Below, one piece after another: positions 5,234-35,796 of a stretch of 64,000 nucleotides of DNA. This stretch comes from Candidatus Poribacteria bacterium (GTDB lineage: Bacteria; Poribacteria; WGA-4E; WGA-3G), in assembly GCA_965242965.1 (NCBI GenBank), contig OZ251518.1:5312001-5376000 (forward strand). The letters run 5' to 3'. The notes under the pieces were generated by a model. It was not told the origin of the DNA and did no database searches. It saw only the letters and a list, made by a program, of their open reading frames with translations. A program made the position numbers and the translations under genes. Numbering within the stretch: the first letter of the stretch is position 1; each line of letters begins with the position of its first letter.

Positions 5234-7581
5234 ACCAACCCCACTCGTTTCCGCACGAACCATTCCAACCCCAACATCGCCAGAAGGAGCCCGAAAATGA
5301 GCGGCATATCCCAGATATCCACATCCGTAATTGTTGAGGTAGCACTCTCCACGAGCGGAATTTGTTGGACGAGTTGCGATGCTTCTTCAAGCGGATAGTA
5401 TTTTCCGCCGCTTCCTTCAGCGAGTGCCTTGAGGAGCGCGACGTTGAGTTCCGCATTGCTGAATTCGGCATAAGAGGGTTTCACTTCAAAGAGACTTTGC
5501 TGTTCGCCGAGGGATTCGCCGTTCAGCGTGCCGGTCGCGATGACGGTATACTCGCCGTAGCGGTTGGGGATAAAGCGTGCCGAGTAGAGTCCATCTTCAC
5601 CGAGCACCTGCTCAAGACGTAGCTCTTTGCGCTTTCCCGTTTCATCGACAATTACGGCGCGGAGTTTCGCCTGATTTGTCGGTTCAAATTTCTTGTCTGT
5701 CGCCGTTACTTCGATGACTACGGGTTCTTTCAGCGTGTAAGCCGTTTTGGCGATGTCAAGTTTGAGATGTTCCTTTGGCGCGGTGGTGAGCCATTTCGCC
5801 ACCTGCCGCCAGAAGCGTTGGTAACTCTCGTCTTGATGCGATTGTAGCATCTGCCACCGCCACGAACTATTCGGCGTGAACACCATCACGCGCCCGGCGT
5901 TGTAGTTCTGCGTTGCGAGGAGAATCCGCTTGCCAAACTGATTTCGTTCAGTTGGATGTTCCGCCAAGACGAGTGCCCCCGGTTTAGCGCGTTTGACTTT
6001 ACTGTATCCGAGCAGCGGTTTTTGGCTTTCCCAGCGTGCCAGGTTTTCTACAGGCGTATCTGCCAACGCCATCAGCGGTTCAACTTTCCCATCCGGTGTC
6101 AATTGCAATTGGTAGCCTTCTCGCGAGGCGCGTCCTCGCGGTGCGGGCGGCGGTGGCGGCGAACCGAGCTCTAATTCTACCGGCAGGAGTTGTGCAATCG
6201 GCGTATTGAGATAAGATTCGGCGAGTTCGTGGTTGCCTAGTGATTCTGCGCCGCCGAGCATTAGCAAGCCGCCGCCTCGTGTTCGGACAAACTCTACCGT
6301 GTTCTCCAACTCCTGTTTCGTGAAATGGGTGGCGGCGACGTTGCCAATAATGATAGCGTCAAAATAGAAGAGTGCCTCTTTGGAATCGGGGTAGTAGTCG
6401 TTGAAAACTAGTTCGGTGCCTGTCTGGGTCCCGCCGTACTCGCTGTCGTTCTTTAAAAACCGGTCGGTGAGTTGGATGTTCGGATCTTCCCTGAGGGCGC
6501 GTTTGATATGTTTAAACTCTTGGCGCGGTTTGCCATCGACAAAGAGAATTTTCACGCGTTTAGAAGGCGCGACCTTCAGCAAAAACGTCTTAGTGTTATT
6601 TTGCGGCACCGCTTCGTCAACGTTAGTGTCAGGCAATACGTGCACCCCGTATCGCTGCGTCCCCGGTTGCCGCGGGGTAAACTTGATTGGGACACGGACA
6701 GTCCTTGTCTCTTTTGACGTGCCTTGCGGTTCCACTTTGTCCATGTCAACGGGGAGTGATGTCAGGATGCGTCCGTTGTTTGTTAATTGGAGGTTCACCT
6801 TTTTGCCTTTGTAGCCGCGTCGTTTCACGGTTGCCCACATCTCGACAGGGAAATCCTCTTCCGCCGTGCGCGGAACGTCGACTTTGACAAGTTCCAAATC
6901 GTCCGTGCCTGCCTCAGAACCGATGCCAACGGTATGGATAGGCAATTTCCGTTCGCGGGTTTGCAGTGCCAGTTTTGCGATGTCCGTGCCGCTCCTGTCT
7001 GCACCGTCTGTCAGTAGGACTACACCGGAGAGGGGGATGCCTTGGAGTTCATCGAGTGCCTCGTTGAGTGCGTTTGGGATGTCGGTGCTTTCGCCGTTTG
7101 CGTCTGTTAATGCCTCGCTAGGGATGCGTTTCGCTCCCGTATCAAATGCGAAGAGGCGTGCTTTGAATTTGGCGTTGAGTTGCGCTAGGAGTGCATCGCT
7201 ATCTTGGTTCTCCTCGCCAAACAGCAATTTGTTTGCGCGATGCAGGCGCGTTTCAGAACCGACAGCATCGGTAATCTGCATACTCTTGGAACTGTCTACC
7301 ATCACTAACAGATACGAGTCATCGGGGTTCGTATCGTAAATCGTGAGGAACGGCTTGAGCAGACAGAAAGCGAGAGCGCAAAGCACCAGCGCGCGGAAAA
7401 AGATGAGAACGCCTCGGAGGCCGCGACGCGTGCGGCCTCGCGTGCTCCGATATGCCCAGATTGTAGCGGCGAGTAGCACGCCGAGCAGGACGACAATCAG
7501 GAGCCCCGGCAAGGGAATTCCGAATGAGAAATCGCCTTCCCGAAAAACGTCGATGGGGTATTTCATAAATTTTTCAAACAT
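5230..7581 (-). CDS. Membrane-anchored vWA + glutamine-amidotransferase-like (DUF1355-type) protein
   Basis: N-terminal TM helices, DSSKSM MIDAS, LLTDGAD, GGGLLMLGG, WRWQ..YQRFWRQ, C-terminal EWFVRKRVGLV; the track's 81-aa extension to 7824 runs into a MITE. Confidence 0.85.
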   Translation of the reverse strand: MFEKFMKYPIDVFREGDFSFGIPLPGLLIVVLLGVLLAATIWAYRSTRGRTRRGLRGVLIFFRALVLCALAFCLLKPFLTIYDTNPDDSYLLVMVDSSKSMQITDAVGSETRLHRANKLLFGEENQDSDALLAQLNAKFKARLFAFDTGAKRIPSEALTDANGESTDIPNALNEALDELQGIPLSGVVLLTDGADRSGTDIAKLALQTRERKLPIHTVGIGSEAGTDDLELVKVDVPRTAEEDFPVEMWATVKRRGYKGKKVNLQLTNNGRILTSLPVDMDKVEPQGTSKETRTVRVPIKFTPRQPGTQRYGVHVLPDTNVDEAVPQNNTKTFLLKVAPSKRVKILFVDGKPRQEFKHIKRALREDPNIQLTDRFLKNDSEYGGTQTGTELVFNDYYPDSKEALFYFDAIIIGNVAATHFTKQELENTVEFVRTRGGGLLMLGGAESLGNHELAESYLNTPIAQLLPVELELGSPPPPPAPRGRASREGYQLQLTPDGKVEPLMALADTPVENLARWESQKPLLGYSKVKRAKPGALVLAEHPTERNQFGKRILLATQNYNAGRVMVFTPNSSWRWQMLQSHQDESYQRFWRQVAKWLTTAPKEHLKLDIAKTAYTLKEPVVIEVTATDKKFEPTNQAKLRAVIVDETGKRKELRLEQVLGEDGLYSARFIPNRYGEYTVIATGTLNGESLGEQQSLFEVKPSYAEFSNAELNVALLKALAEGSGGKYYPLEEASQLVQQIPLVESATSTITDVDIWDMPLIFGLLLAMLGLEWFVRKRVGLV

Positions 7582-21928: not shown

Positions 21929-22272
21929 TGCGCGGGAAACGCCGCTTTGTTCCGTAGGGCGAGGGACAGGCCCTCGCCTTACAAGAAGCCAAAGTGAGGT
22001 TGGCTGATGATTAAGTATCAAATGTTCATGGATGAGCGCGCGCAGCGAATTGCGAACGCGGAGGCGAAAGGCAAGGCCGAGGGCATCGCCGAGGGCATCG
22101 CCGAGCGCGACCGGGAGTGGACAGACTGGAATAATCGGCGGCTGGATGCGGCAGCGAAAGGACAACCCTTTGATGAACCGCCGCCGTTGAATACGCCACC
22201 GGCACCCCCGCAATAGTGCGCGGGAAACGCCGCTTTGTTCCGTAGGGCGAGGGACAGGCCCTCGCCCTACAA
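21576..22272 (+). repeat. Tandem direct duplication (21576-21984 / 21996-22272), each copy ending in a palindromic REP
   Basis: Near-identical sequence except for a 132-bp (11-unit) difference in the repeat tract; both end in gtagggcgagggacaggccctcgccYtac. Confidence 0.9.
22007..22216 (+). CDS. Stand-alone copy of the C-terminal module of 21356-21928 (2 repeat units)
   Basis: Same MIKYQMFMDERAQRIANAE...PPAPPQ; GAGG RBS retained. Confidence 0.55.
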   Translation: MIKYQMFMDERAQRIANAEAKGKAEGIAEGIAERDREWTDWNNRRLDAAAKGQPFDEPPPLNTPPAPPQ

Positions 22273-22288
22273 CTCAAAGGTAACGTTG

Positions 22289-22981
22289 ATGAAGGAAACC
22301 GTCCATCACATTAGCACGCTCATTCGGAAAGACCTCGGGCTCCATTTCCGTTCAAAAGAGACATTGGCTTTAATCTTTGTCTTTAGTCTGCTAGTTGTCC
22401 TCATCTTCGCGTTCGCGTTCGGGCCGATTTTCCCAGAGAAAGCGGAACGCGGCAAACTCACCGCCAGCGTCCTCTGGGCCGCCTTCGTCTTCGCAGGAAT
22501 TATCACCTTAAACCGTTCATTCGCGCTTGAAAGGACAAGTGGTGCCTTGCACGGTATCCGACTAACAGGCGTTGATGCTAGCAACTTCTACCTCGCTAAG
22601 GTTATCAGCAACCTCATTTTTCTTTTGCTGTTAGAAGTTGTCATCACGCCGATTGCACTGCAATTCTTGGATCTCCTTAATTTCGTGACGGTAGGCGTGC
22701 TGCTGAAATTGATAGGCGTATTGAGCATCGGCACCCTCGGCTTCTGTGCCGTCGGCGTGCTCCTGGCAGGCATGTCAACGAGTGTCGGCGGTGAAAGCCT
22801 CCTCTCGGTAATCTTACTGCCGCTCGTTCTCCCGATTATCATGGGCGGCGCGAAATGCACCGTATCCCTGCTCGTCAATGGGACGGCGGCAAGCGGGATG
22901 TGGCTGAATTTGTTAGTCGGGTATAGTCTCATTTTCTTAGCCGCCGCCTATCTCCTCGCCGAGGCTGTGATTGAGGAATAA
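22289..22981 (+). CDS. ccmB: Haem exporter permease CcmB
   Basis: IRKDL...RSKE, LNRSFALERTSGAL, LLSVILLPLVLPII; multi-TM. Confidence 0.85.
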   Translation: MKETVHHISTLIRKDLGLHFRSKETLALIFVFSLLVVLIFAFAFGPIFPEKAERGKLTASVLWAAFVFAGIITLNRSFALERTSGALHGIRLTGVDASNFYLAKVISNLIFLLLLEVVITPIALQFLDLLNFVTVGVLLKLIGVLSIGTLGFCAVGVLLAGMSTSVGGESLLSVILLPLVLPIIMGGAKCTVSLLVNGTAASGMWLNLLVGYSLIFLAAAYLLAEAVIEE

Positions 22982-22995
22982 CAGAGGAACATCTT

Positions 22996-25672
22996 ATGTC
23001 TAAAAAACCGATCGATCATTATCAACACCGCGATAAACGCGCCAACAACCCAACGCAAGAGCTCAGCGGGTTTGCCGAAGACGCGGAGACGCAACCCGAC
23101 ACTATCCGCTACCCGCGCGATACTGCGCTGGACCCGCAGCTCGTCTGGCGCGGCAAGGACGCACAGAACGCTGAAGCCCTCGGGGTTAACGCCGTGCCAA
23201 TCTATGCGCAGGAGCACATCCAACCGCAAGCGATTATTGAGGCTCTCCGCGCCCAAAAAGCGCAGGACGAACCGGGGCAAACCGAGATGCTCTTTGAGGG
23301 ATTCAACGCGCTAGAATTTGGACAGCGCATTGAGTTCTATCAGCACGAACAGAATTGGAATAACCGCTTCATTTTAGGCGATTCGCTCCTCGTTATGAAT
23401 TCCCTCGCCGAGAAAGAGGGGCTTAAAAGCCGAGTGCAGACGATATACTTCGATCCGCCTTACGGCATCAAATTCGGGAGTAACTGGCAAGTCAGCACCC
23501 GAAAACCGAGCGTCGGCGATACGAAAACGGAAGATGTGACGCTCCAACCGGAACAAATCCGCGCGTTCCGAGATACGTGGGAACTCGGCATCCACTCCTA
23601 TTTGGCGTATCTGCGCGACCGGCTTACTGTGGCGCGCGAACTCCTCACCGATAGCGGCAGTATCTTCGTCCAAATCAGTGACGAAAACGTCCATCTCGTC
23701 CGTTCGCTATTAGACGAGGTTTTCGGCAGTGACAATTTTGTCACCACAATTGCTTGGACCCGGGCGGAAACTACTTCTTCGACATCCATCTCGTCGGTAT
23801 TTGATTATCTGTTATGGTATGCCAAAGATCGGAATCGGATGAAGTATCGGCAGCTCTATATGGAATGGGACGAACGCAAACCGGACCCGCTCCTTAAATC
23901 TTATGAGCGGGTGCAGCTGCCGGATGGAACACAGCGCAGAATGACGCGTAAAGAGAAGCAAGATCCGAGTCTGCTGCCTGTGGGAAGTCGGAGATTAGTG
24001 GATTATTCGGTTACCTCAGAGACAGCAGGTAATGCCACTTATGAATATGAATTTGAAGGCAGAGGTTTCACGCCAACAAGCGATAGAGGTTGGGCTGCCA
24101 GCCGCGAAGGACTAGATAGACTTGCCAAACAGGGCAGGCTTTTGGCACCGGGTAAATCTTTGCGCTATATTCGATACGCTACCGATTCACCCGGCCGCGC
24201 GCTTACGAACCTTTGGACAGATACCGCGGGAGGACGCTCTGGGAAAACCTATGTCGTTGAGACGCAACCGAAAGTCATCCAACGGTGCATTCTGATGACA
24301 AGCGACCCGGGTGATCTTGTCCTCGATCCCACTTGCGGCAGCGGCACCACCGCCTACGTCGCAGAACAATGGGGCAGACGGTGGATAACAATTGATACCT
24401 CCCGTGTTGCCCTCGCCTTGGCGCGCACGCGGCTCATGTCCGCTGTCTATCCTTACTATCGTTTGGAAGATGCCACCGATATCAAGCAGGGGTTTTCCTA
24501 CAAAACCGCGCCGCACATCAGCCTCTCGGATATGGCGAACAACCTTGAGATTGACGACATCCATGCCGAGTATGCACCGAAATTAGACGAGATTCGTGAA
24601 TTACTAAACTCGCGTTTAGAGAAGGGGGGGGTCTTGGGAAGATTGGGAAGTTCCTCAAGAACCCGATCCTTCGTGGAGTGCGGAAACGCAGCAACTGCAC
24701 AAACGGTGGCTTTCCCTCAAGCGTGAGCGGCAGGCGGAGATGGATGCGTCTACGGCGCGTCGTGCCACCAGCGAGATACTCTATGATAGACCGCATGTTG
24801 ACAGAAGTCGGACGCGCGTCGCCGGTCCGTTTACGGTGGAGAGTTTATCGCCGCACCGCATGCAAGAGGGTGCCGATACTGCGCCGCCTGTGGAATCACC
24901 GGATTTTCATGCGCACATCGTGGAGCATCTGAAGAGTGCGGGTGTGCAGAATCGCATTCGGGAACAACGGCTAACGTTTGACTGGCTGTCGCCGTTCCCC
25001 GGCGAGTATCTCCATGCCGAGGGTGCCTATACCGACGAAAACGGTGAATCACAGAGTGTCGCGATTAGCATCGGGCCGCAGTATGAGACTGTGGGTAGAC
25101 AGTGGATGGAAGGCGCAGCGCGCGAGGCGATGCGTCGTATCCCGAAATTCAAGCAGCTCATCGTTTTAGGGTTCGCCTTTGAGGGATACACGGCGGATGA
25201 GCGCACCCGCATGGGGAGTCTCCCGATTCTTCCGATTAAGATGAGCCCGGAATTGATGATAGGCGAACTCAAGAACACCGGCGCGGGCAATCTCTTCATG
25301 AACTTCGGCGAACCTGACATTGAACTCCAACGGCAGGATGATGGCAGACTCGTCGTGAAGTTGTTAGGCGTTGATGTGTTCGATGCACGGCAAGGCTTGG
25401 TGCGTTCGGATAACCCTGATGAGATTGCCTGCTGGTTTATTGACACCGACTACAACGATGAGGCGTTTTTCATGCGGCATGCCTATTTCACCGGCGCAGA
25501 CGAACCTTACGAGAAACTGAAGCAGACGTTGAGTGACGACATTGACGAGGCGGCGTGGGAGAGTCTGTATCGGACAGAGAGTCTTCCGTTTATGGGGTCT
25601 ACCTCCGGCAAAATCGCGGTGAAAGTGATTAATCACTACGGGGACGAGGTCTTGAAGGTTTACGAGGTGTAA
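22996..25672 (+). pseudogene. Type III-like RM methyltransferase Mod (beta class), split by a frameshift at G8 tract
   Basis: ORF 22996-24726 has DPPY and DPTCGSGTT; the alternative frame after the G run reads SWEDWEVPQE...RQAEMDASTARRA and joins ORF 24740-25672 (...KIAVKVINHYGDEVLKVYEV). Confidence 0.85.
24624..24631 (+). repeat. G8 homopolymer at Mod frameshift
   Basis: gagaaGGGGGGGGtcttgggaagattgg; G7 (or G10) restores the frame. Confidence 0.85.
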
Positions 25673-25685
25673 TTTTTCCTAAAAG

Positions 25686-25714
25686 TTGCATTTCGTCGCG
25701 CGATGTGGTATAAT
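25686..25714 (+). promoter_or_regulatory. sigma70-type promoter of ATPase-PIN array
   Basis: TTGCAT-17 bp-TATAAT with TGn extension, about 25 nt upstream of ATG 25739. Confidence 0.75.
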
Positions 25715-25738
25715 TACAGTCAAAGGAGACAGGAAGCC

Positions 25739-27055
25739 ATGATTACGCATATCCGCGTGAAAAACTTCAAATCGTGGGCGGACAGCGGAGCGGTGAAACT
25801 CGCGCCGCTGACGGGATTTTTCGGTACGAATAGTTCTGGGAAGAGCAGTCTGTTGCAGATGCTGTTGTTGCTGAAGCAGACTATCGGCCGCGAAGAGGTG
25901 CTCTTCTTCGGTGATGAGTCTTCGTTGGTGAATCTGGGAAGTTTCCACGATGTCATTCATGGGCATGACACCGATGCCTTGCTGGAGTTGGAATTCGGAT
26001 GCAACCTCTGGCAACCGGGGGGAATCAGGATTCTTGGCAGAGATACCGACTGGAGAATACAGAATCTTCAAATCTCTGTTGACACTTTCACTTTTACCAC
26101 GTCTATCCGGCAAAAACAGCATTCTCTCAGCGTTGCTTCCATTCGCTATGGTTTGGACTCCGGCGATGTTCCAGAGGTTCGTTGGGAGAATGGCAGCTGG
26201 TCTTATAGAGAATTGCTTGGCAGACAACCTAGTTGGCGTGAGCAAATATCGGATTGCTACGGTGGTTCTGTTTCAGCAGATGTCGTAAAGCCGCTCGCCT
26301 TTGCATTTGAGAGGCAATTTTCTCACGTGTATTACCTCGGGCCGGCTCGGGTTACGCCCCAGCGATGTTATCATTGGGAAGGCACACATCCGCGTGACAC
26401 CGGGTTGTGGGGCGATAAAACGATTGACGCTCTACTCTCCGCTCGCGTGAAACGGCTGATAACCCACTATCAGGGAGAACACCGGCAAATCGAGGAGCGG
26501 GTATCAGCATGGCTCCAGGCTATGGAGCTCGCCTCTGCTTTTTCGCTAGATTCCAGTAACAATGGCGACGGAAGGGACTATGAAGTTCGCATCAAAAAAG
26601 ATAGCGTCAGTCCTGAGGTAACGCTGGTTGACATGGGGTATGGGTTATCGCAGTTTCTCCCTGTCCTCGTTCTCTGCTATTACGCACCGGAGGGTTCAAC
26701 GCTCATTCTGGAGCAACCGGGCATGCACCTGCATCCGAAGGTTCAATCGCAACTGGCAGACCTGCTAATAGAGGTTGTCACGGAACGGAATCTCCAAGTG
26801 CTGGTGGAGAGCCACAGCGAACATCTACTCAACCGGTTGCAGCGGCGCATCGCCGAAGAGCAGATTTCTGTTGATAAAACTGCCCTCTATTTTTGTCGTA
26901 ACGAGCGTGGCGTTTCCGCTCGTGAGCGGCTAGAAGTAGACGAATTCGGTAACATCGCGAATTGGCCGGAAAACTTTTTCGGCGACGAGATGGGCGATTT
27001 GTTGGCGATGGCTCAAGCGCAAATGGAACGGCAAAAACGGGCGGGGGAGTCATGA
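25739..27055 (+). CDS. ABC-type (AAA_15/AAA_21) ATPase with DUF3696-like C-terminus, copy 1
   Basis: NFKSW, Walker A GTNSSGKS, signature GYGLSQ, Walker B LILEQPGMHLHP, ESHSEH, DEFGNIANWPENFF. Confidence 0.9.
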   Translation: MITHIRVKNFKSWADSGAVKLAPLTGFFGTNSSGKSSLLQMLLLLKQTIGREEVLFFGDESSLVNLGSFHDVIHGHDTDALLELEFGCNLWQPGGIRILGRDTDWRIQNLQISVDTFTFTTSIRQKQHSLSVASIRYGLDSGDVPEVRWENGSWSYRELLGRQPSWREQISDCYGGSVSADVVKPLAFAFERQFSHVYYLGPARVTPQRCYHWEGTHPRDTGLWGDKTIDALLSARVKRLITHYQGEHRQIEERVSAWLQAMELASAFSLDSSNNGDGRDYEVRIKKDSVSPEVTLVDMGYGLSQFLPVLVLCYYAPEGSTLILEQPGMHLHPKVQSQLADLLIEVVTERNLQVLVESHSEHLLNRLQRRIAEEQISVDKTALYFCRNERGVSARERLEVDEFGNIANWPENFFGDEMGDLLAMAQAQMERQKRAGES

Positions 27056-27582
27056 ACGCAGTTATCGTAGACACGAATGTCATCGGCATCGCAAATCGTA
27101 AAGGAGAGCACGCGTCACTGGCCTGTATTGAACACTGTCAACGGCGGCTCCATCAGATTCTCTCCCGCCGCGAAAAGGTGGTTGTTGACGATGCGTGGCG
27201 AATTTTTGGAGAATACACCAGATACGTAGACACCGGCACCCGTAAAGGGATCGGCGATATCTTCGTGAAAACATTGCTGCAAAACTTAAGGAAGCCTGCG
27301 ATTTGTGAGATGGTGCATATCACGCCATTGGCTGGAAACGGCACCGATTTCGCTGAGTTTCCTACCGATGCGGCGTTGAGCAAATTCGATCCGGACGACA
27401 GAAAATTTATCGCTGTCGCCTGCGCGTATCGGCAAACCTCCGGACAATCCGCGACTATCCTGCTAGCGATAGATAGAGGGTGGCTTGACTTTGTGGGTGC
27501 TTTGGCGGCACATGAAGTCGCGATTGACTTCCTCTGTGAGGCGGACATTCAGCGACCTCGTCCAGATGAACAGAGGAGTTAA
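27052..27582 (+). CDS. PIN-domain protein, copy 1
   Basis: VIVDTNVI, FGEY, DPDDRKFIAVA; ATGA coupling to ATPase. Confidence 0.8.
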   Translation: MNAVIVDTNVIGIANRKGEHASLACIEHCQRRLHQILSRREKVVVDDAWRIFGEYTRYVDTGTRKGIGDIFVKTLLQNLRKPAICEMVHITPLAGNGTDFAEFPTDAALSKFDPDDRKFIAVACAYRQTSGQSATILLAIDRGWLDFVGALAAHEVAIDFLCEADIQRPRPDEQRS

Positions 27583-27585
27583 GAA

Positions 27586-28914
27586 ATGTTGACGCACATC
27601 CGACTGCAAAACTTCAAATCGTGGGCAGACAGTGGGGAGGTGGTTCTTGCGCCGCTGACAGGCTTTTTCGGAACGAATAGTTCTGGGAAGAGCAGTCTGT
27701 TGCAGATGCTGTTGTTGCTGAAGCAGACTATCGGCCGCGAAGAGGTGCTGTTTTTCGGGGACGCGCAGTCGCTGGTGAATCTGGGGAGTTTCGGTGACGT
27801 GATTCATGGACACAACACCGATGCTTCGCTGACATTGGAATTCGGATGCAAGCCCCGGAAACCCGTGAAGATCAGCGTGCCTGACGTGAACGCCACTGAA
27901 CATCCAGACGCTCTTTCTGCCCCCATTGGTAGTTTCACTTTCACCACGTCTATCCGTGAAGAAAGGGGAAATTTGAAAGTTGCGCGCCTTCGTTACAAGC
28001 TGCTTTCCGGGGATGTTTCCAAAGTTTCTTGGGAAAAGGGACGCTGGATTCACAGCAATTCGCGCGGCGAATCCGTAGGAGGGAGTAGCACTATCAAGAA
28101 CTGCTGCGGGTCCCCTGAGTGGCGTTTAAGTGAAGTATTAGGGCCTCTGACCGCCGCGTTTGAAGATCAATTCTCTCGCGTTTATTACCTCGGTCCAACC
28201 CGTGTTCATCCGCAACGGCACTATCATTGGAATGGCAAGCATCCGGTGGAGATGGGTTTGTTTGGGGATCAGGCGATCGACGCGCTCCTTTCGGCGCGCG
28301 TGCGGAATCTGAAAACTTCCCACAACGGCAACGGCGTTCCAATTGAAAACCGAGTATCAGCGTGGCTGCAAAAGATGGAGCTCGCGCACGATTTTTGGCT
28401 GGGCCCGAACAGGTCTTCGGACAATAGTACCTACGAGGTTCGCATTCAAAAAAGCCCTTCTAGCGCAAGGGTGACTTTGGCAGACATGGGCTACGGCTTG
28501 GCGGATCTGTTGCCGATCTTAGTCCACTGCTACTATGTGCCAGAAGGCTCGACGTTGATTCTAGAGCAGCCCGGCATTCATCTGCATCCGCATACACAGG
28601 CGCAACTCGCCGACCTGTTTTTAGAGGTGATTGCCGAACGAAATCTCCAAATTCTGATTGAGAGCCACAGCGAGCAGTTGTTGACGCGCCTGCAGCGGCG
28701 CATTGCGGAAAAAAAGGTTGCACAGGACACCATCGCCTTGTATTTTTGCCGTAACACCGACGGTGCCTCTACTATTGAGAAATTAGAGGTAGACGCACTG
28801 GGGGATATCCACAACTGGCCGGAATACTTCTTCGGGGATGTGATGGGCGACATGTTCGCAGTCACTGATGTCCAAGTTGAACGTCTTCAATCCCAAGAGG
28901 AAGCGAGCGGTTAG
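27586..28914 (+). CDS. ABC-type ATPase with DUF3696-like C-terminus, copy 2
   Basis: Same motifs (GTNSSGKS, GYGLAD, EQPGIHLHP, ESHSEQ, NWPEYFF). Confidence 0.9.
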   Translation: MLTHIRLQNFKSWADSGEVVLAPLTGFFGTNSSGKSSLLQMLLLLKQTIGREEVLFFGDAQSLVNLGSFGDVIHGHNTDASLTLEFGCKPRKPVKISVPDVNATEHPDALSAPIGSFTFTTSIREERGNLKVARLRYKLLSGDVSKVSWEKGRWIHSNSRGESVGGSSTIKNCCGSPEWRLSEVLGPLTAAFEDQFSRVYYLGPTRVHPQRHYHWNGKHPVEMGLFGDQAIDALLSARVRNLKTSHNGNGVPIENRVSAWLQKMELAHDFWLGPNRSSDNSTYEVRIQKSPSSARVTLADMGYGLADLLPILVHCYYVPEGSTLILEQPGIHLHPHTQAQLADLFLEVIAERNLQILIESHSEQLLTRLQRRIAEKKVAQDTIALYFCRNTDGASTIEKLEVDALGDIHNWPEYFFGDVMGDMFAVTDVQVERLQSQEEASG

Positions 28915-29453
28915 TGAACACCGTTATCCTTGATACCAACGTGATTGTCATCGCGAATGGCCAAGCACCTCAGGCATCCGCGGATTGCGTGAGGCGATGT
29001 CGTCAGCGGCTGGCTCTTATTCTCAGCGGTTCGGAGAAAGTGGTGTTAGACTACGGACAGCGCATTCTGCAAGAATACAGGCGAAATCTGAGAGGTGAAA
29101 GACATCCTCGGCGCGGGCGCGGCGATCTGTTTTTGCAGTGGTTAAGACAAAATCAGTGGAACGAGGAAAGGTGCTCCCTTGTCCATATTACGCCGCTAAC
29201 CGGCAACGGTAACGATTTCGCCGAATTCCCGAACGAGGATACCGCGTTAGCGACTTTTCACAAAAAGGATAGGAAATTCATCGCTGTCGCCTGCGCGTAT
29301 CGGCAAACCTCCGGGCACGCCGCGACTATTCTGCTGGCGATAGATAGAGGGTGGCTTGACTTTGTGGGCGCGCTGACGGCACATGAAGTCGCGATCGACT
29401 TCCTCTGCGAGAGGGACATTCAGCAGCCCCGTCAAGACGAACTGAGGAATTAA
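28914..29453 (+). CDS. PIN-domain protein, copy 2
   Basis: VILDTNVI, LQEY, HKKDRKFIAVA; GTG start overlaps ATPase stop. Confidence 0.8.
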   Translation: MNTVILDTNVIVIANGQAPQASADCVRRCRQRLALILSGSEKVVLDYGQRILQEYRRNLRGERHPRRGRGDLFLQWLRQNQWNEERCSLVHITPLTGNGNDFAEFPNEDTALATFHKKDRKFIAVACAYRQTSGHAATILLAIDRGWLDFVGALTAHEVAIDFLCERDIQQPRQDELRN

Positions 29454-29456
29454 GAC

Positions 29457-30764
29457 ATGTTGACGCATATCCGCGTGGAAAACTTCAAATCGTGGAGAGA
29501 CAGCGGCGAGGTGGTTCTTGCGCCGCTGACAGGCTTTTTCGGTACGAATAGTTCGGGGAAAAGCAGTCTGTTGCAGATGCTGTTGTTGCTGAAGCAGACG
29601 GCTGAGCGTTCAAACGCAGAGGAAGTTATCTTCTTCGGTGATGATACTTCAGCAGTCAATCTTGGCGATTTCAATGCAGTGGCTCACGGACATAAAAATA
29701 ATGAGATCCTCAGGTTAGAATTTGGGGGAGAGCTCAGTTGTCCGATCGGCACTCCGATAGATAACGGTCCTGTGAGAAAAATAGATGGGTTCACATTTGC
29801 AACATTTATTACCCAAGGACTAGAAGGGCTCAGCGTTGACAAACTTCGCTACCGTAGTCTTGAGCGTAATACGCCTGATGGCCGCGTAGATGTATCTTGG
29901 AAGCACCCTGATTTCTTTCACGTGACCGGCCAAGACAGGAGAAAAAAGGTAAAGATAAAAAATAGCTATGGTGTGTCGCCCGATGAGGACAGGACTCTGG
30001 ATGGGTTCACCACCGCCTTTGAAGTTTTGTTTTCTCACCTCTATTACCTCGGTCCCACTCGGGTAGAACCACAACGGCATTACCATTGGGAGGGCGAGCA
30101 GCCTGAGGGCATTGGGCAGTGGGGCCAAAATGCAATTGACGCGCTTCTTTCCGCGCGCATCGATCGGCTCACAACACCGAGCCAAAACGGCGATGTCCCA
30201 ATTGAGGAGCGGATATCAGCATGGCTCCGAAAAATGGATCTCGCGCATGCCTTTTCGTTAAAGCGAACGGGCCTGTGGGATGAAAAGAACTATGCCTTTC
30301 GTATCCAACAAAGTCCGGCGAGTCCGGCGGTGACGCTGGTTGACACGGGCTATGGCTTATCGCAATTTCTCCCGGTGCTCGTCCTCTGTTACTATGCACC
30401 GGAAGGCTCAACGCTCATTCTGGAGCAGCCGGGCATGCACCTGCATCCGAAGGTGCAATCGCAATTGGCGGATTTGCTAATAGAGGTTGTCACGGAACGA
30501 AACCTCCAAGTTTTGGTGGAGAGCCACAGCGAACATCTGCTGACTCGGTTACAACTTCGCATCGCAGAAGAAAAGATTGGCGCGGACAAGGCTGCTCTCT
30601 ATTTCTGTGAAAATAAGGATGGAGTTTCCGAAATGAAATCGTTGGAACTTGACGAGTTCGGAAACATCAAAAACTGGCCCCCAGACTTCTTTGGCACTGT
30701 CAGAGGAGACCTGGTTAAAATGACGAAGGCCCAGATGAAACGTCAGAAGCGAACGGAGGGATAA
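29457..30764 (+). CDS. ABC-type ATPase with DUF3696-like C-terminus, copy 3
   Basis: Same motifs; C-terminal block nearly identical to copy 1. Confidence 0.9.
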   Translation: MLTHIRVENFKSWRDSGEVVLAPLTGFFGTNSSGKSSLLQMLLLLKQTAERSNAEEVIFFGDDTSAVNLGDFNAVAHGHKNNEILRLEFGGELSCPIGTPIDNGPVRKIDGFTFATFITQGLEGLSVDKLRYRSLERNTPDGRVDVSWKHPDFFHVTGQDRRKKVKIKNSYGVSPDEDRTLDGFTTAFEVLFSHLYYLGPTRVEPQRHYHWEGEQPEGIGQWGQNAIDALLSARIDRLTTPSQNGDVPIEERISAWLRKMDLAHAFSLKRTGLWDEKNYAFRIQQSPASPAVTLVDTGYGLSQFLPVLVLCYYAPEGSTLILEQPGMHLHPKVQSQLADLLIEVVTERNLQVLVESHSEHLLTRLQLRIAEEKIGADKAALYFCENKDGVSEMKSLELDEFGNIKNWPPDFFGTVRGDLVKMTKAQMKRQKRTEG

Positions 30765-31306
30765 TGGACGCTGTTGTCGTAGATACTAACGTTATCCTCG
30801 TCGCTAAAGGGATGGCATGTCAGGCATCGCAGGCGTGCGTCCAGACATGCATAGAGCGGCTAGACCGGATTGTTAAGGGGCCGGAGAGAGTCGTCATTGA
30901 TGACAACTGGGAGATCCTCGGCGAATATTCGGATTATGAAGCCGATTCAACGACAGCGGCGCGGACCGGATGGGGATTTTTGGAGTGGTTGATGCGAAAT
31001 CACGAGAATCCGAAACAGTGTGTGAAGGTGCATATCACCCCTTCGGTAGATGGGACCGGATTTGAAGAGTTTCCCACTGACCCGGCATTAAGCGAGTTTG
31101 ACCCGGGGGACAAAAAATTTATCGCTGTCGCTGTCGTTTACGAAAACGAGCATCGTCAAAAAGTGCCAATCTTACAAGCGGTAGACAGCAATTGGTACGG
31201 ATTCCGAGAGGCATTCGCCCGGAATGGATTGATAATTGACTTCATTTGCGCGGAAAACATCCGACTTTTGTATCAAAGGCGCGGTGAAAGACGCGCGAGA
31301 AACTAA
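30764..31306 (+). CDS. PIN-domain protein, copy 3
   Basis: VVVDTNVI, LGEY, DPGDKKFIAVA; TAATG coupling. Confidence 0.8.
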   Translation: MDAVVVDTNVILVAKGMACQASQACVQTCIERLDRIVKGPERVVIDDNWEILGEYSDYEADSTTAARTGWGFLEWLMRNHENPKQCVKVHITPSVDGTGFEEFPTDPALSEFDPGDKKFIAVAVVYENEHRQKVPILQAVDSNWYGFREAFARNGLIIDFICAENIRLLYQRRGERRARN

Positions 31307-31356
31307 CCGTTTGTGTTGGTTTTGGACTCAATACTTTTGTCTATGGAGAAATTCAC

Positions 31357-34320
31357 ATGCCGAAAGTGAACATAGAAAACCCTGTCATCAACAGCCCGTT
31401 TGACGAACCGCAACGCCACTTCAAATTCGATGAACGCGGCATCACCGAAAACATCGTCAACGGAAGACGCAAAAGCGAATACTTCATTCCGGTGCCGAAA
31501 CCGAGGAAGCAGCCGAAAGAGGTTCAGACGCAACTTGAACTGCACGTGCCCGAACTCCGAGAGGCCAACGCGTTTATCAACCGCGTGCGGGAAGAAGTCA
31601 GCGTCTGGCGCAAAAACGGTTACCCCGGCGTAACGGAAACAACGAGACGCTTGCTTACATACTGGAACGACACCGAACGCGAGCCGAGGCTGTTTTTCTG
31701 TCAACGCGAGGCAGTTGAAACCGCTATCTATATCCACGAAGTGGAAAATCCTCGGCGCGGGGACTCAATACACAAGACGCTGCTGAAAGCGAATGAAGAA
31801 GCGAACCCCGGGCTTTTCCGCATCGCTTTCAAAATGGCGACAGGGAGCGGCAAGACTTTGGTGATGGCGATGCTCATCGTTTATCATACGTTGAACAAAA
31901 TCGCTGCACCGCGCAATCCCCGTTTTTCCGATGCGTTTCTTGTCGTCACACCGGGGCTGACAATCCGCGACCGGCTCCAAGTGCTACGTCCAGAAAACCC
32001 TGGCAACTACTACGATGAGATGCGCTTACTGCCGCCCGACGACAGGAAGGCACTCTCTCACGCGAAGATTGTCATCACAAACTACCACGCCTTCCAACGT
32101 CGGAAGAATTCGGATGTAAGTGGGCTTGGGAGAAAAATCCTTGGCGAAGGTGTCGCTCAACTTGATGAAACTGACGATGAGATGGTGGCCCGGGTTTGCC
32201 GCACGTTCAGTAGGAAACGGCATATCATTGTCCTCAACGATGAGGCGCACCACTGCTATCGTCCGAAACAGGCGGGAAAGAAGCAGGCATCCGAGGAAGA
32301 CAGCGCGCGATTGTGGATAAGTGGCTTGGAAGCAGTGCAAGCGAAACTCGGCATCAAAACCGTTTATGATTTGTCGGCGACACCGTTCTTCCTCAGCGGC
32401 TCCGGCTATAGTCAAGAGATACCCGCCGGGAAGAAACTCAAGGAAGGCGTTCTGTTTCCATGGGTTGTCTCCGATTTCGCGTTAATCGATGCGATTGAGT
32501 GCGGCATCGCCAAAATCCCGCGCGTGCCTGTCGCCGATGATGCGATGACAGGGGAAGCTCCCATCTATCGCAATCTCTGGAACGTCATCGGGAAAAGGCT
32601 GCGCAAAAAAGTGGTCGGCGAAAGTCCACGGTTGCCAGCCGAATTGGAAACTGCGCTCAGAAGCCTCTACGAAAACTATGAAGGCGCATATCAGCAGTGG
32701 CAGAAAGAGACGCGAGACTTGACACCGCCGGTGATGATTGTCGTTTGTAATAATACGAGCGTTTCCAAGCGCGTCTACGATTGGATTGCCGGTTGGGAGA
32801 AGAAAACCAACGATGGGGGCACCGTAGTTGTGCCCGGGAACCTACCCATTTTCAACAACGAAGTCAACGGTGCGTGGGGTGAGAAGTTAAACACGCTTAT
32901 CATTGATAGCAAGCAGTTGGAATCCGGCGAGGCACTCAAAAGCGCGTTTAAGAGGGCCGCGAAGACCGAAATTGCGCAGTTCAAACGCAGTCGCAACGAC
33001 GAGAATGTTACCGACGAAGCACTTTTGCGAGAGGTGATGAATACCGTCGGGCAAAAGGGAAAACTCGGTGAGCAGATTAAGTGCGTTGTTTCTGTCTCAA
33101 TGCTCAGCGAAGGGTGGGATGCCAAGCGGGTGACGCATATCCTCGGCGTTCGCGCGTTCAGCACGCAGCTGCTCTGCGAACAGGTAGTCGGTAGGGGTTT
33201 GCGCCGTTCCAGTTACCACACCGAATTAACGAAATGCAACATCAACGGCGAAGAAATTCAGTTGGAAACGTTTCCACCGGAATACGCCGAGGTTTACGGT
33301 GTGCCGTTCTCGTTTATTCCTGCGACAGGCATTGGCCGCGCGCCAAAGCCGCGGGCGATTACCTTTGTCGAGGCATTGGCGGAACGCGCAGCGTGTGAAA
33401 TCACGTTCCCGAATGTGATTGGGTATCGCCGCCACGTGCCGCCTGAAAAACTGCAGGCGGTTTTCACGGAAGAGTCGCAGTATCAACTCTCAACGGCGGA
33501 GGTGCCCAGCCGTGTCGATATTGCAGACATCACCGGCAAAATCGTTGAAGATGAATTGTCATACGCAACGAATCATCGCGTGCAGCAAACCGAATTCTGC
33601 ATCGCAAAGGTGCTGCTAGAGAATCACTTTTGTGACGATGATGGCGATGTGCGGCACTGGCTTTTCCCGCAGTTGCTCGGTATAACGCGGCGGTGGATGA
33701 GCGAGTGTGTCACGTATAAAGACAACACTTATCCGCAGTTTTTCTTGATTGACGAAATCGCGCACAAGGCGGCACATCGCATTCATCATGCTATCCTCCA
33801 TGCCGAACATCTCCACAATGCTGGAGTGTCAGAGCATCCGCAGACGTTGCTTCCGATACTGGGCGCGCCGCTCGGCTCCACGCGAAACGTCGCGTTTGAG
33901 ACGGCCAAACCGGTGTGGAGCACGCGCCCAGATAAGTGCCACATCTCGCATGTCGCCGCGGACACGGAGTCGTGGGAGCAAAAAGCGGCTGAGGCATTAG
34001 AGCAGATGGACGAAGTGCGCGCCTATGTCAAAAATCATCACTTAGGCTTCACAATTCCGTATCTCACCCACACCTTGGAGAAGCGGCATTATGTCCCGGA
34101 CTTCATCGTCCGCATCCAAGATGGAGACGAAGTTGTCAACCTCATCCTTGAAGTTTCAGGAATTGAACGTGAAGATAAGCGTCAAAAGGTGGATACCACC
34201 AAAAACTTGTGGGTGCCAGCGGTGAACAACCACGGTGAATTCGGGAAGTGGGCGTTTCTGGAAATTCAAGATCCGTGGAATATCCAGAACGACATCCGCG
34301 CCTTTAGGCTATCTGCTTAA
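31357..34320 (+). CDS. Type III-like restriction subunit Res (SF2 helicase + PD-(D/E)XK nuclease)
   Basis: FFCQREA, KMATGSGKT, NDEAHH, EGWDA, EQVVGRGLRR, YVPDFIVR...LEVSG. Confidence 0.92.
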   Translation: MPKVNIENPVINSPFDEPQRHFKFDERGITENIVNGRRKSEYFIPVPKPRKQPKEVQTQLELHVPELREANAFINRVREEVSVWRKNGYPGVTETTRRLLTYWNDTEREPRLFFCQREAVETAIYIHEVENPRRGDSIHKTLLKANEEANPGLFRIAFKMATGSGKTLVMAMLIVYHTLNKIAAPRNPRFSDAFLVVTPGLTIRDRLQVLRPENPGNYYDEMRLLPPDDRKALSHAKIVITNYHAFQRRKNSDVSGLGRKILGEGVAQLDETDDEMVARVCRTFSRKRHIIVLNDEAHHCYRPKQAGKKQASEEDSARLWISGLEAVQAKLGIKTVYDLSATPFFLSGSGYSQEIPAGKKLKEGVLFPWVVSDFALIDAIECGIAKIPRVPVADDAMTGEAPIYRNLWNVIGKRLRKKVVGESPRLPAELETALRSLYENYEGAYQQWQKETRDLTPPVMIVVCNNTSVSKRVYDWIAGWEKKTNDGGTVVVPGNLPIFNNEVNGAWGEKLNTLIIDSKQLESGEALKSAFKRAAKTEIAQFKRSRNDENVTDEALLREVMNTVGQKGKLGEQIKCVVSVSMLSEGWDAKRVTHILGVRAFSTQLLCEQVVGRGLRRSSYHTELTKCNINGEEIQLETFPPEYAEVYGVPFSFIPATGIGRAPKPRAITFVEALAERAACEITFPNVIGYRRHVPPEKLQAVFTEESQYQLSTAEVPSRVDIADITGKIVEDELSYATNHRVQQTEFCIAKVLLENHFCDDDGDVRHWLFPQLLGITRRWMSECVTYKDNTYPQFFLIDEIAHKAAHRIHHAILHAEHLHNAGVSEHPQTLLPILGAPLGSTRNVAFETAKPVWSTRPDKCHISHVAADTESWEQKAAEALEQMDEVRAYVKNHHLGFTIPYLTHTLEKRHYVPDFIVRIQDGDEVVNLILEVSGIEREDKRQKVDTTKNLWVPAVNNHGEFGKWAFLEIQDPWNIQNDIRAFRLSA

Positions 34321-34335
34321 AACAACAAACCTTGA

Positions 34336-35796
<1,461 letters not shown>

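Follow-up and report, generated by a model that had tools for sequence, protein, structure and literature searches.

A tandem array of three diverged HEC-03 modules, probably carried as cargo by a type III-like restriction-modification operon in a Poribacteria sponge symbiont

The stretch of DNA analyzed here (the window) comprises 64,000 nucleotides (nt) of a Candidatus Poribacteria genome (GenBank assembly GCA_965242965.1, contig OZ251518.1, positions 5,312,001 to 5,376,000), and coordinates given without a locus name are positions within it. From 22996 to 34320 on the plus strand, the list of open reading frames (ORFs) gives one string of genes: mod, three pairs each composed of an ABC ATPase and a PIN nuclease, and res. 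mod and res belong to a type III-like restriction-modification (RM) system, and the three pairs between them, which match the anti-phage system HEC-03, are the subject of this report. Handles beginning with G denote genomes (G000 is the window genome and G001 its sister genome), and those beginning with L denote loci fetched for comparison. The features of the region are as follows.

22996..24726, + strand: 5' part of mod, N6/N4 DNA methyltransferase, type III-like (Pfam PF01555, 112 bits; PADLOC MTase_III PDLC03632, 528 bits, positions 61-613 of 983)
24624..24631, + strand: poly-G tract G8, the frame break of mod (sequence; frame comparison with intact orthologues)
24740..25672, + strand: 3' part of mod (PADLOC PDLC03632, 256 bits, positions 650-982 of 983; frame open from about 24630)
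25686..25714, + strand: candidate internal promoter, TTGCAT-17 nt-TGgTATAAT (sequence and comparative conservation of the -10)
25739..27055, + strand: HEC-03 ABC ATPase of unit 1, 438 amino acids (PADLOC PDLC04148, 376.7 bits; Pfam AAA_15, AAA_21, DUF3696)
25837..25901, + strand: gene-conversion-like tract near the ATPase 5' end, units 1 and 2 (13 consecutive polymorphic sites identical, P<0.0005)
27052..27582, + strand: HEC-03 PIN of unit 1, 176 amino acids (PADLOC PDLC04147, 94.9 bits; PIN1 clade)
27401..27522, + strand: gene-conversion-like tract, 3' end of PIN1 (sliding identity; permutation P<0.0005)
27586..28914, + strand: HEC-03 ABC ATPase of unit 2, 442 amino acids (PADLOC PDLC04148, 357 bits; structure model available)
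28914..29453, + strand: HEC-03 PIN of unit 2, 179 amino acids, GTG start (PADLOC PDLC04147, 82.7 bits; structure model available)
29457..30764, + strand: HEC-03 ABC ATPase of unit 3, 435 amino acids (PADLOC PDLC04148, 350 bits)
30764..31306, + strand: HEC-03 PIN of unit 3, 180 amino acids, res-proximal type (PADLOC PDLC04147, 82.7 bits; PIN3 clade)
31357..34320, + strand: res, 987 amino acids, BPTD_3080-family type III-like restriction endonuclease/helicase (NCBIfam NF046055, 1097 bits, cut-off 800; Pfam ResIII)

An initial annotation, made from the sequence alone, had placed three ATPase-PIN pairs between mod and res, and both the ORFs and the profile searches bear this out: the pairs are co-oriented and abut one another from 25739 to 31306. 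It had also proposed that the pairs are translationally coupled, in agreement with the overlapping stop and start codons at all three ATPase-PIN junctions (4, 1 and 1 nt in units 1, 2 and 3). The distance from a PIN stop codon to the next ATPase ATG is 3 nt in each case. An alternative ATG of ATPase1 lies upstream at 25703, where it overlaps the -10 box of the candidate promoter; we took 25739 as the start because the paralogues begin MxTHIR. Identity to ATPase1 is 61-62% for ATPase2 and ATPase3, and identity to PIN1 is 64% for PIN2 and 46% for PIN3.

Judged by profile matches, each pair in the window is HEC-03, an already described anti-phage system. In PADLOC-DB v2, the HEC-03 ATPase model PDLC04148 is the best match for all three ATPases (350-377 bits), the second best being the model of Menshen NsnB (205-217 bits), and the HEC-03 PIN model PDLC04147 is the sole PADLOC match for all three PINs (83-95 bits). 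Pfam finds AAA_15, AAA_21 and DUF3696 in every ATPase and gives no match for any of the three PINs. HEC-03, or Hma-embedded candidate 03, consists of an ABC ATPase and a PIN protein "similar to VapC" (Payne, Hughes, Fineran and Jackson 2024, bioRxiv 10.1101/2024.01.29.577857). It reduced phage plaquing in E. coli MG1655 ΔRM, needed both genes to do so, and was toxic on induction with isopropyl β-D-thiogalactopyranoside (IPTG); the same authors suggest that the trigger to which such ATPases respond is specified by their Inserts 1 and 2. Gene names are swapped between sources, the ATPase being A and the PIN B in Payne et al. 2024 and the reverse in PADLOC-DB. The initial annotation recognized no described system with such a triplicated layout nested in RM. 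At the level of the pair, the PADLOC search gives a complete match to one that is in PADLOC-DB v2 and has been tested experimentally (Payne et al. 2024), and the reading of the pairs as sensors and effectors of an abortive-infection-like response agrees with that published work.

The pairs in the window share with HEC-03 the two co-oriented genes, one for an ABC ATPase with a DUF3696 tail and the other for a VapC-like PIN of ~160-180 amino acids, and they too are embedded inside another defence operon. They differ in that three diverged units stand in tandem and in that the host operon is not Hma but a type III-like RM system composed of an N6/N4 methylase and a BPTD_3080 res. Hma itself is made up of the helicase HmaA, the 5-methylcytosine (m5C) methyltransferase HmaB and the ATPase HmaC (Payne 2021); it was rejected as the host system, as the methylase in the window is of the N6/N4 type and res has no Hma match at E <= 0.01. 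The Mod has the features of a type III enzyme (PF01555 and MTase_III PDLC03632, the latter at 528 + 256 bits, upstream of res), the assembled copy not being full-length, and the Res contains PF04851 (ResIII) and matches NF046055 at 1097 bits. We call the system "type III-like" because matches to the PADLOC REase_III models are weak (E 2.7e-6 to 3.5e-5).

Structure models, built from a 48-row alignment for PIN2 and from 54 rows for ATPase2, were used to compare the two proteins with known folds. The PINs of the window are 176-180 amino acids long, and PIN2 is modelled as a single domain with a predicted local distance difference test score (pLDDT) of 91.7. Recognition of the PIN fold required VIA-align because Foldseek against the PDB gave nothing at E <= 0.001 (the best being FitB, E 1.2e-3); a phmmer search of the PIN against PDB sequences likewise gave no match at E <= 10. 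Each of the 15 best VIA-align rows is a VapC/FitB toxin, another protein with a PIN fold or an archaeal protein lacking annotation, with Z of 7.6-8.9 over 118-135 aligned residues. Five acidic residues (D7, D46, E54, D119 and D144) do not vary in any of the 49 PINs collected, nor within the 48-row alignment. By model and alignment, the window PINs are VapC-like in fold and have an intact acidic active site.

The ATPase2 model (pLDDT 87.2) has as Foldseek neighbours the SMC head, OLD, PtuA, Rad50 and GajA, at ~1e-11 to 1e-10, and phmmer against PDB sequences gives weak matches to OLD and ABC transporters only. The ATPases retain the Walker A lysine. Their Walker B motif is LILEQP in 52 of 55 ATPases, with EE in two others and ED in one. 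In pairwise alignments, LILEQP (ATPase2 residues 324-329, window 28555-28572) pairs with EE of an OLD nuclease and with DE of an ABC transporter, and therefore Q sits at the position of the catalytic glutamate. A prediction of the ATPase2-PIN2 complex at 1:1, from alignments made for this analysis, scored 0.01 against a mark of 0.32; a 1:1 complex cannot display a 4:2 clamp such as that modelled for Menshen NsnB-NsnC, and the score weighs neither for nor against an association.

The ATPases are conserved at their ends and divergent in the middle, as had been noticed at the outset. Among the three paralogues, residues 81-200 have a mean pairwise identity of 0.22-0.43, compared to 0.77-1.00 for residues 1-60 and 301-360, and among 54 homologues the identity of the variable block is 0.12-0.33. 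Residues 81-200 coincide with a β-rich insert that follows the P-loop helix in the ATPase2 model (strands E82-E167). On the model, this variable region is the ABC "Insert 1" that Payne et al. 2024 propose as a determinant of trigger specificity. Between G000 and its orthologues in G001 and G002, the ratio of nonsynonymous to synonymous substitution rates (dN/dS) of Insert 1 is 0.34-0.75 in units 1 and 3 and 0.14 in unit 2, with 0.05-0.24 for the ATPase cores, 0.13-0.24 for the PINs and 0.11-0.13 for res. These ratios indicate that Insert 1 evolves faster than the core. In G001, the unit-2 ATPase (L012:11970-13148) has ~50 residues fewer inside Insert 1 (392 vs 442 amino acids) and is otherwise 89% identical; thus, Insert 1 tolerates large deletions.

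The array is old. In a tree of PINs, PIN1, PIN2 and PIN3 of the window belong to different clades, each common to other genera, and the PIN3 clade includes the res-proximal PINs of G001, G002, G010, G014, G023 and G024. Since the clades span genera, the units are old paralogues rather than recent duplicates. Counted from mod, the order of units is 1,2,3 in the window and 2,1,3 in G001, and G002 retains the unit-3 type only. The single unit of G002 was considered as a recombinant of ATPase1 with PIN3, and this was rejected because its ATPase groups with unit-3 ATPases in the tree.

The initial annotation had supposed that each sensor has its cognate RNase. That pairing does not hold over the history of the array: the ATPase tree conflicts with the grouping of the PINs into clades, with 13 label changes against a minimum of 4, and therefore partners have been reshuffled or homogenized. 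For example, the unit-1 and unit-3 ATPases of the window's genus group together (97 in the Shimodaira-Hasegawa-like approximate likelihood ratio test, SH-aLRT), and their PINs do not. The description of the array as a mosaic is well supported for units 1 and 2, which share runs of 18, 16 and 13 consecutive identical polymorphic sites at the PIN 3' and ATPase 5' ends (2000 permutations; 99.9th percentile run, 11 sites; P<0.0005). The 3' end of PIN1 has a sliding identity of 87-92% to that of PIN2 and of 47-55% to that of PIN3. For units 1 and 3, the evidence for a mosaic is weak, consisting of a block at 26609-26790 that is 83-93% identical (P about 0.02). Comparison of the sequences thus points to an old array in which ATPase and PIN partners, as well as core segments, have been exchanged by recombination or gene conversion.

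Arrays of this kind recur in related genomes. The contigs related to the window are all from Candidatus Poribacteria (best 80 of 196 confirmed matches), and the HEC-03 PIN model has matches in 123 of 176 Poribacteria genomes (E <= 1e-8, up to 5 matches per genome) and in 0 of 14 control genomes. We took a census of 79 Poribacteria loci with flanks of up to 10 kb. Twenty-two arrays are flanked by mod and res, and these contain one pair (8 arrays), two pairs (11), two pairs with a broken PIN (1) or three pairs (2); one more three-pair array has res on one side and the contig end on the other. The survey of neighborhoods suggested with the initial annotation thus finds that [ATPase-PIN]n recurs between mod and res, with n=1-3. 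Neither mod nor res lies within the fetched flanks of another 33 single pairs, 5 double arrays and a few loci of the form ATPase-ATPase-PIN. Literature on embedding in type III RM systems, ABC ATPases, PIN proteins and defence in Poribacteria yielded no such arrays, and the supplement of Payne et al. 2024 may list cases. The type III-like RM host and the arrays of 1-3 units across Poribacteria appear to be undescribed. What appears to be new is the tandem, RM-nested array, its host operon and its recurrence across the phylum; the two-gene unit was already known.

Several loci depart from the common layout. Genus g10, from another family of the order, has an ATPase-ATPase-PIN arrangement with two diverged ATPases (L046:8490-11629, L047:8484-11608 and L048:8445-11536; also L095 and L125), a layout that hints at a hetero-oligomeric sensor. 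At L100:5959-15196+ (also L088), the order is mod-ATPase-PIN-mod-ATPase-PIN-res with two intact mod genes, and there the repeat unit seems to include mod. A decayed locus in G008 (L021:11013-11549 and flanks) has a PIN cut short by a premature stop (codon 57), with mod and res reduced to fragments.

The array likely has its own internal promoter. The initial annotation had described it as near-consensus, which is true of only part of it: the -10 at 25709-25714 is perfect and extended and is conserved in relatives, but the -35 (25686-25691) is weak, matching at 3 of 6 positions. A generic promoter scan did not report the site at 25686-25714 because the scan demands 4 of 6 matches per hexamer. 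An AGGAG lies 10 nt 5' of the ATG at 25739. Comparative support is good. Among 9 embedded loci, 8 have a perfect TATAAT that begins 23-31 nt 5' of the ATG of their first ATPase, the distance being 56 nt in the ninth (G023), and this conservation extends over six genera in which the spacers have otherwise diverged. The promoter probably also feeds res, since the 50-nt gap before res contains no promoter-like site.

In the window, mod is out of frame after G8, a break that the initial annotation did not mention, and G7 or G10 would restore a single ORF; mod is a single ORF in 21 of the 23 related mod genes examined. G tracts are found at the same linker position in G002 (G10, L014 near 8139), G007 (G8, L020) and L067 (G7, near 7419), and a paralogous mod of the window genome, 43% identical, has a G9 tract (L133:8699-8707; G000:C1, near 4811700). 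All five tract-bearing mods are out of frame in the assemblies. The tract suggests phase variation and makes this mod a candidate phase-variable gene: the presence of a homopolymer at the same position in a paralogue and in three genomes argues for reversible switching rather than random decay. The frame break may instead be a homopolymer assembly error in long-read assemblies; L067 is an Illumina-type assembly by contig name. RM is probably off in the assembled majority because mod is frame-broken, while the array is intact.

Phase-variable type III mod genes (phasevarions) occur in Haemophilus, Neisseria and Helicobacter, which are host-adapted pathogens. As in those genes, a simple-sequence tract inside mod breaks the frame. 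Unlike in them, the tract in the window is a poly-G within the linker that leads to the C-terminal domain, in a Mod of ~890 amino acids, and the hosts are sponge symbionts. The split of mod at G8 could also mean that the RM operon is being lost and that the array is a functionless leftover of duplication, and the clearly degraded locus in G008 would fit such a view. We regard this as extremely improbable. The six genes of the array and res are intact, their catalytic motifs are conserved, dN/dS is well below 1, and the break falls exactly in a homopolymer of which there are counterparts at the same position in the paralogous mod and in three other genomes.

The association of the array with RM is specific to one lineage of res. 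This was assessed with 30 res loci from 41 genomes, a second sample drawn evenly from the same family. Of the 17 res genes orthologous to that of the window (type a), 14 are immediately preceded by a HEC-03 PIN and 2 directly adjoin mod (empty sites), and the last lacks a recognizable neighbor; among the res genes of two paralogous lineages, 0 of 13 have HEC-03. Comparison by eye of the two empty mod-res junctions with an occupied one revealed no repeat or target-site signature. The window genome carries all three res lineages. Its second RM locus has an intact mod of 956 amino acids abutting res, and its third has the mod broken at G9 and a PDC-S03-like gene between mod and res. The PDC-S03-like gene (L133:9967-10620; G000:C1, near 4812970-4813620; 63.5 bits to the PADLOC candidate) is followed by a 125-amino-acid ORF and ~1.1 kb of DNA, both unassigned, and then by res.

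The initial annotation proposed that the units are triggered when RM is inhibited or bypassed. In its fullest form, this explanation would have the units keep watch on the flanking type III-like enzyme, or on phage anti-restriction proteins directed against it, and a failure of RM would set off abortive infection; the embedding would then be functional and not historical. The lineage-specific association (14 of 17 vs 0 of 13) would be expected under such a scheme, as would a shared transcript if the array promoter drives res. Embedded PINs also cluster on the tree, with 8 label changes compared to a mean of 16 in shuffled trees and 0 of 500 shuffles as low, but such clustering is equally expected from vertical co-inheritance. 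Other findings speak against a dependence on RM. HEC-03 alone protects E. coli ΔRM (Payne et al. 2024), and 33 single pairs and 5 double arrays are without mod or res in reach. Where their flanks were checked, these solo pairs and RM-free doubles had housekeeping neighbors, namely genes for glycerate kinase, sulfatase, ThiF and ABC permease. The window genome itself has a fourth HEC-03 pair, which stands solo at a distance of 1.2 Mb; its neighbors encode glycerate kinase, sulfatase, isochorismatase and an M16 peptidase. In the window, moreover, the array is intact beside a broken mod, with RM probably off. We therefore consider a guard of RM unlikely. Most likely, the nested position results from a long shared inheritance with a single RM lineage and not from mechanistic dependence.

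Homologous pairs are also found on plasmids. On the Azotobacter plasmid pAcX50e (L131:8001-10619) and on an Aeromonas salmonicida plasmid (L132:8001-10629), the pair is followed directly by a gene for an "RNA ligase family protein". The identity of these homologous pairs is about 34% for the ATPase and 42% for the PIN, and the RNA ligase gene is absent from the Poribacteria arrays. Its presence beside the plasmid pairs may hint that the target is an RNA that can be repaired, such as tRNA.

The occurrence of such pairs on conjugative or mobilizable plasmids, beside AbiE and Hok/Gef modules, raises the question of whether the units are selfish or stabilizing cargo: addiction modules, similar to toxin-antitoxin systems, that are kept by a mobile operon or stabilize it and have little role in defence. 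The VapC-like fold of the PINs would suit such a role, as would the toxicity of HEC-03 on induction (Payne et al. 2024) and the decay in G008, where a PIN with a stop codon accompanies partial mod and res genes. Nevertheless, HEC-03 has measured anti-phage activity (same preprint), the PINs (dN/dS 0.13-0.24) and ATPase cores are under purifying selection, and the system is present in 123 of the 176 genomes of the phylum. In addition, the locus keeps the same chromosomal flanks in genus g1, a ccmB-like gene and an enolase gene, and these constant flanks argue for vertical descent and not mobility. Addiction cargo of this kind is, in our judgment, quite improbable.

Based on these results, we conclude that the region is probably a tandem array of three diverged HEC-03 modules, carried as cargo inside a type III-like RM operon of a Poribacteria sponge symbiont. 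Five points weigh against this conclusion or parts of it. Anti-phage activity of the window pairs would follow by analogy with the tested HEC-03 homologue. RNA cleavage by the window PINs is likewise predicted by analogy. The Walker B glutamine may mean that ATP is bound with little or no hydrolysis, which leaves the role of ATP in doubt. For Insert 1, dN/dS stays under 1 and drops to 0.14 in unit 2, and relaxed constraint therefore fits as well as diversifying selection. Lastly, association of 14 of 17 res genes with HEC-03 is stronger than simple hitch-hiking predicts and leaves room for functional coupling.

By analogy with related systems, we postulate the following mechanism for the HEC-03 array. 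Each module would consist of a VapC-like PIN nuclease and of an ABC ATPase whose core resembles Menshen NsnB, whose C-terminus is a DUF3696 helix and whose Insert 1 is hypervariable and rich in β-strands. The DUF3696 tails of an ATPase oligomer would hold the PIN. When Insert 1 detects a signal from a phage, and with ATP bound, the PIN could be freed or activated, and it would then cut RNA and thereby halt the infected cell. The three units might act as a panel of sensors with different Insert 1 surfaces.

A bolder proposal is that the array and its RM lineage form a composite, switchable immune locus. The poly-G tract would toggle Mod, the internal promoter would keep res and a recombining panel of up to three ATPase-PIN sensors expressed, the converted cores and fast-evolving Insert 1 surfaces would make the array a bacterial counterpart of the nucleotide-binding leucine-rich repeat (NLR) clusters of plants, and the 14-of-17 association would reflect a coupling of restriction failure to PIN activation. 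We offer this as a doubtful speculation.

The conclusion that the array consists of HEC-03 modules has several implications. HEC-03 has until now been described as a single two-gene system, and the series of arrays with 1-3 units is a comparison set for sensing by Insert 1 and for the exchange of ATPases and PINs. "Guilt by embedding" extends to type III-like RM operons, another RM locus of the same genome carrying a PDC-S03-like gene. In Poribacteria, HEC-03 is close to a core defence, given the 123 of 176 genomes searched that have it. Finally, the near-universal glutamine in Walker B bears on the question of whether these sensors hydrolyze ATP or only bind it.

Among known systems, Menshen is close to the pairs in the window. 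Its NsnB has EN at the Walker B motif and GxG in place of SGG, and in an AlphaFold 3 (AF3) model of NsnB4-NsnC2, two DUF3696 tails clamp the inactive PIN-like domain of NsnC (PMC12065111, Nucleic Acids Research 2025). The window ATPases are similarly NsnB-like (205-217 bits), with a DUF3696 tail, a non-canonical Walker B and GxG instead of SGG, and their partner also has a PIN-type fold. In contrast to NsnC, whose PIN-like domain is reported to be an inactive adaptor (PMC12065111), the window PIN keeps its catalytic acids and lacks a BECR effector domain at the C-terminus. On this comparison, HEC-03 may be a pared-down relative of NsnB-NsnC, with the PIN as the active effector. Menshen as such was rejected. 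As the initial annotation had noted, no DUF262 partner gene is present: PF03235, expected in NsnA (ParB-DUF262), has 7 matches in the genome, none of them in the window and the nearest >100 kb away. NsnB was the only Nsn model among the PADLOC matches listed for 9 proteins (the best 25 families for the ATPases and the first mod ORF).

Septu (PtuAB), PARIS (AriAB), Gabija (GajAB) and OLD also combine an ABC ATPase sensor with a nuclease effector and are structural neighbors of the ATPase model, but their effectors are HNH or TOPRIM DNases, whereas that of the window is a PIN. PARIS and Septu were rejected: the partners are PINs with HEC-03 as sole PADLOC match, and AriA models reach only 63-87 bits on the ATPases. 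VapBC was rejected as well, there being no VapB directly 5' of any PIN and each PIN start overlapping the stop codon of an ATPase of 435-442 amino acids. PrrC, of EcoprrI, is a single polypeptide in which an ABC-type NTPase is fused to an anticodon nuclease, and it is held latent by a type I RM enzyme. Like PrrC, the window array would be an RNA-cleaving abortive-infection module nested between RM genes; unlike for PrrC, dependence on the RM enzyme is neither shown nor likely.

Two minor observations concern the region as a whole. Rfam has no match within 22000-35000. On the minus strand, antisense ORFs of 188 and 196 amino acids (25679-26245 and 27463-28053) face the conserved 5' ends of ATPase1 and ATPase2; they are presumably side effects of the repetition of the coding sequence.

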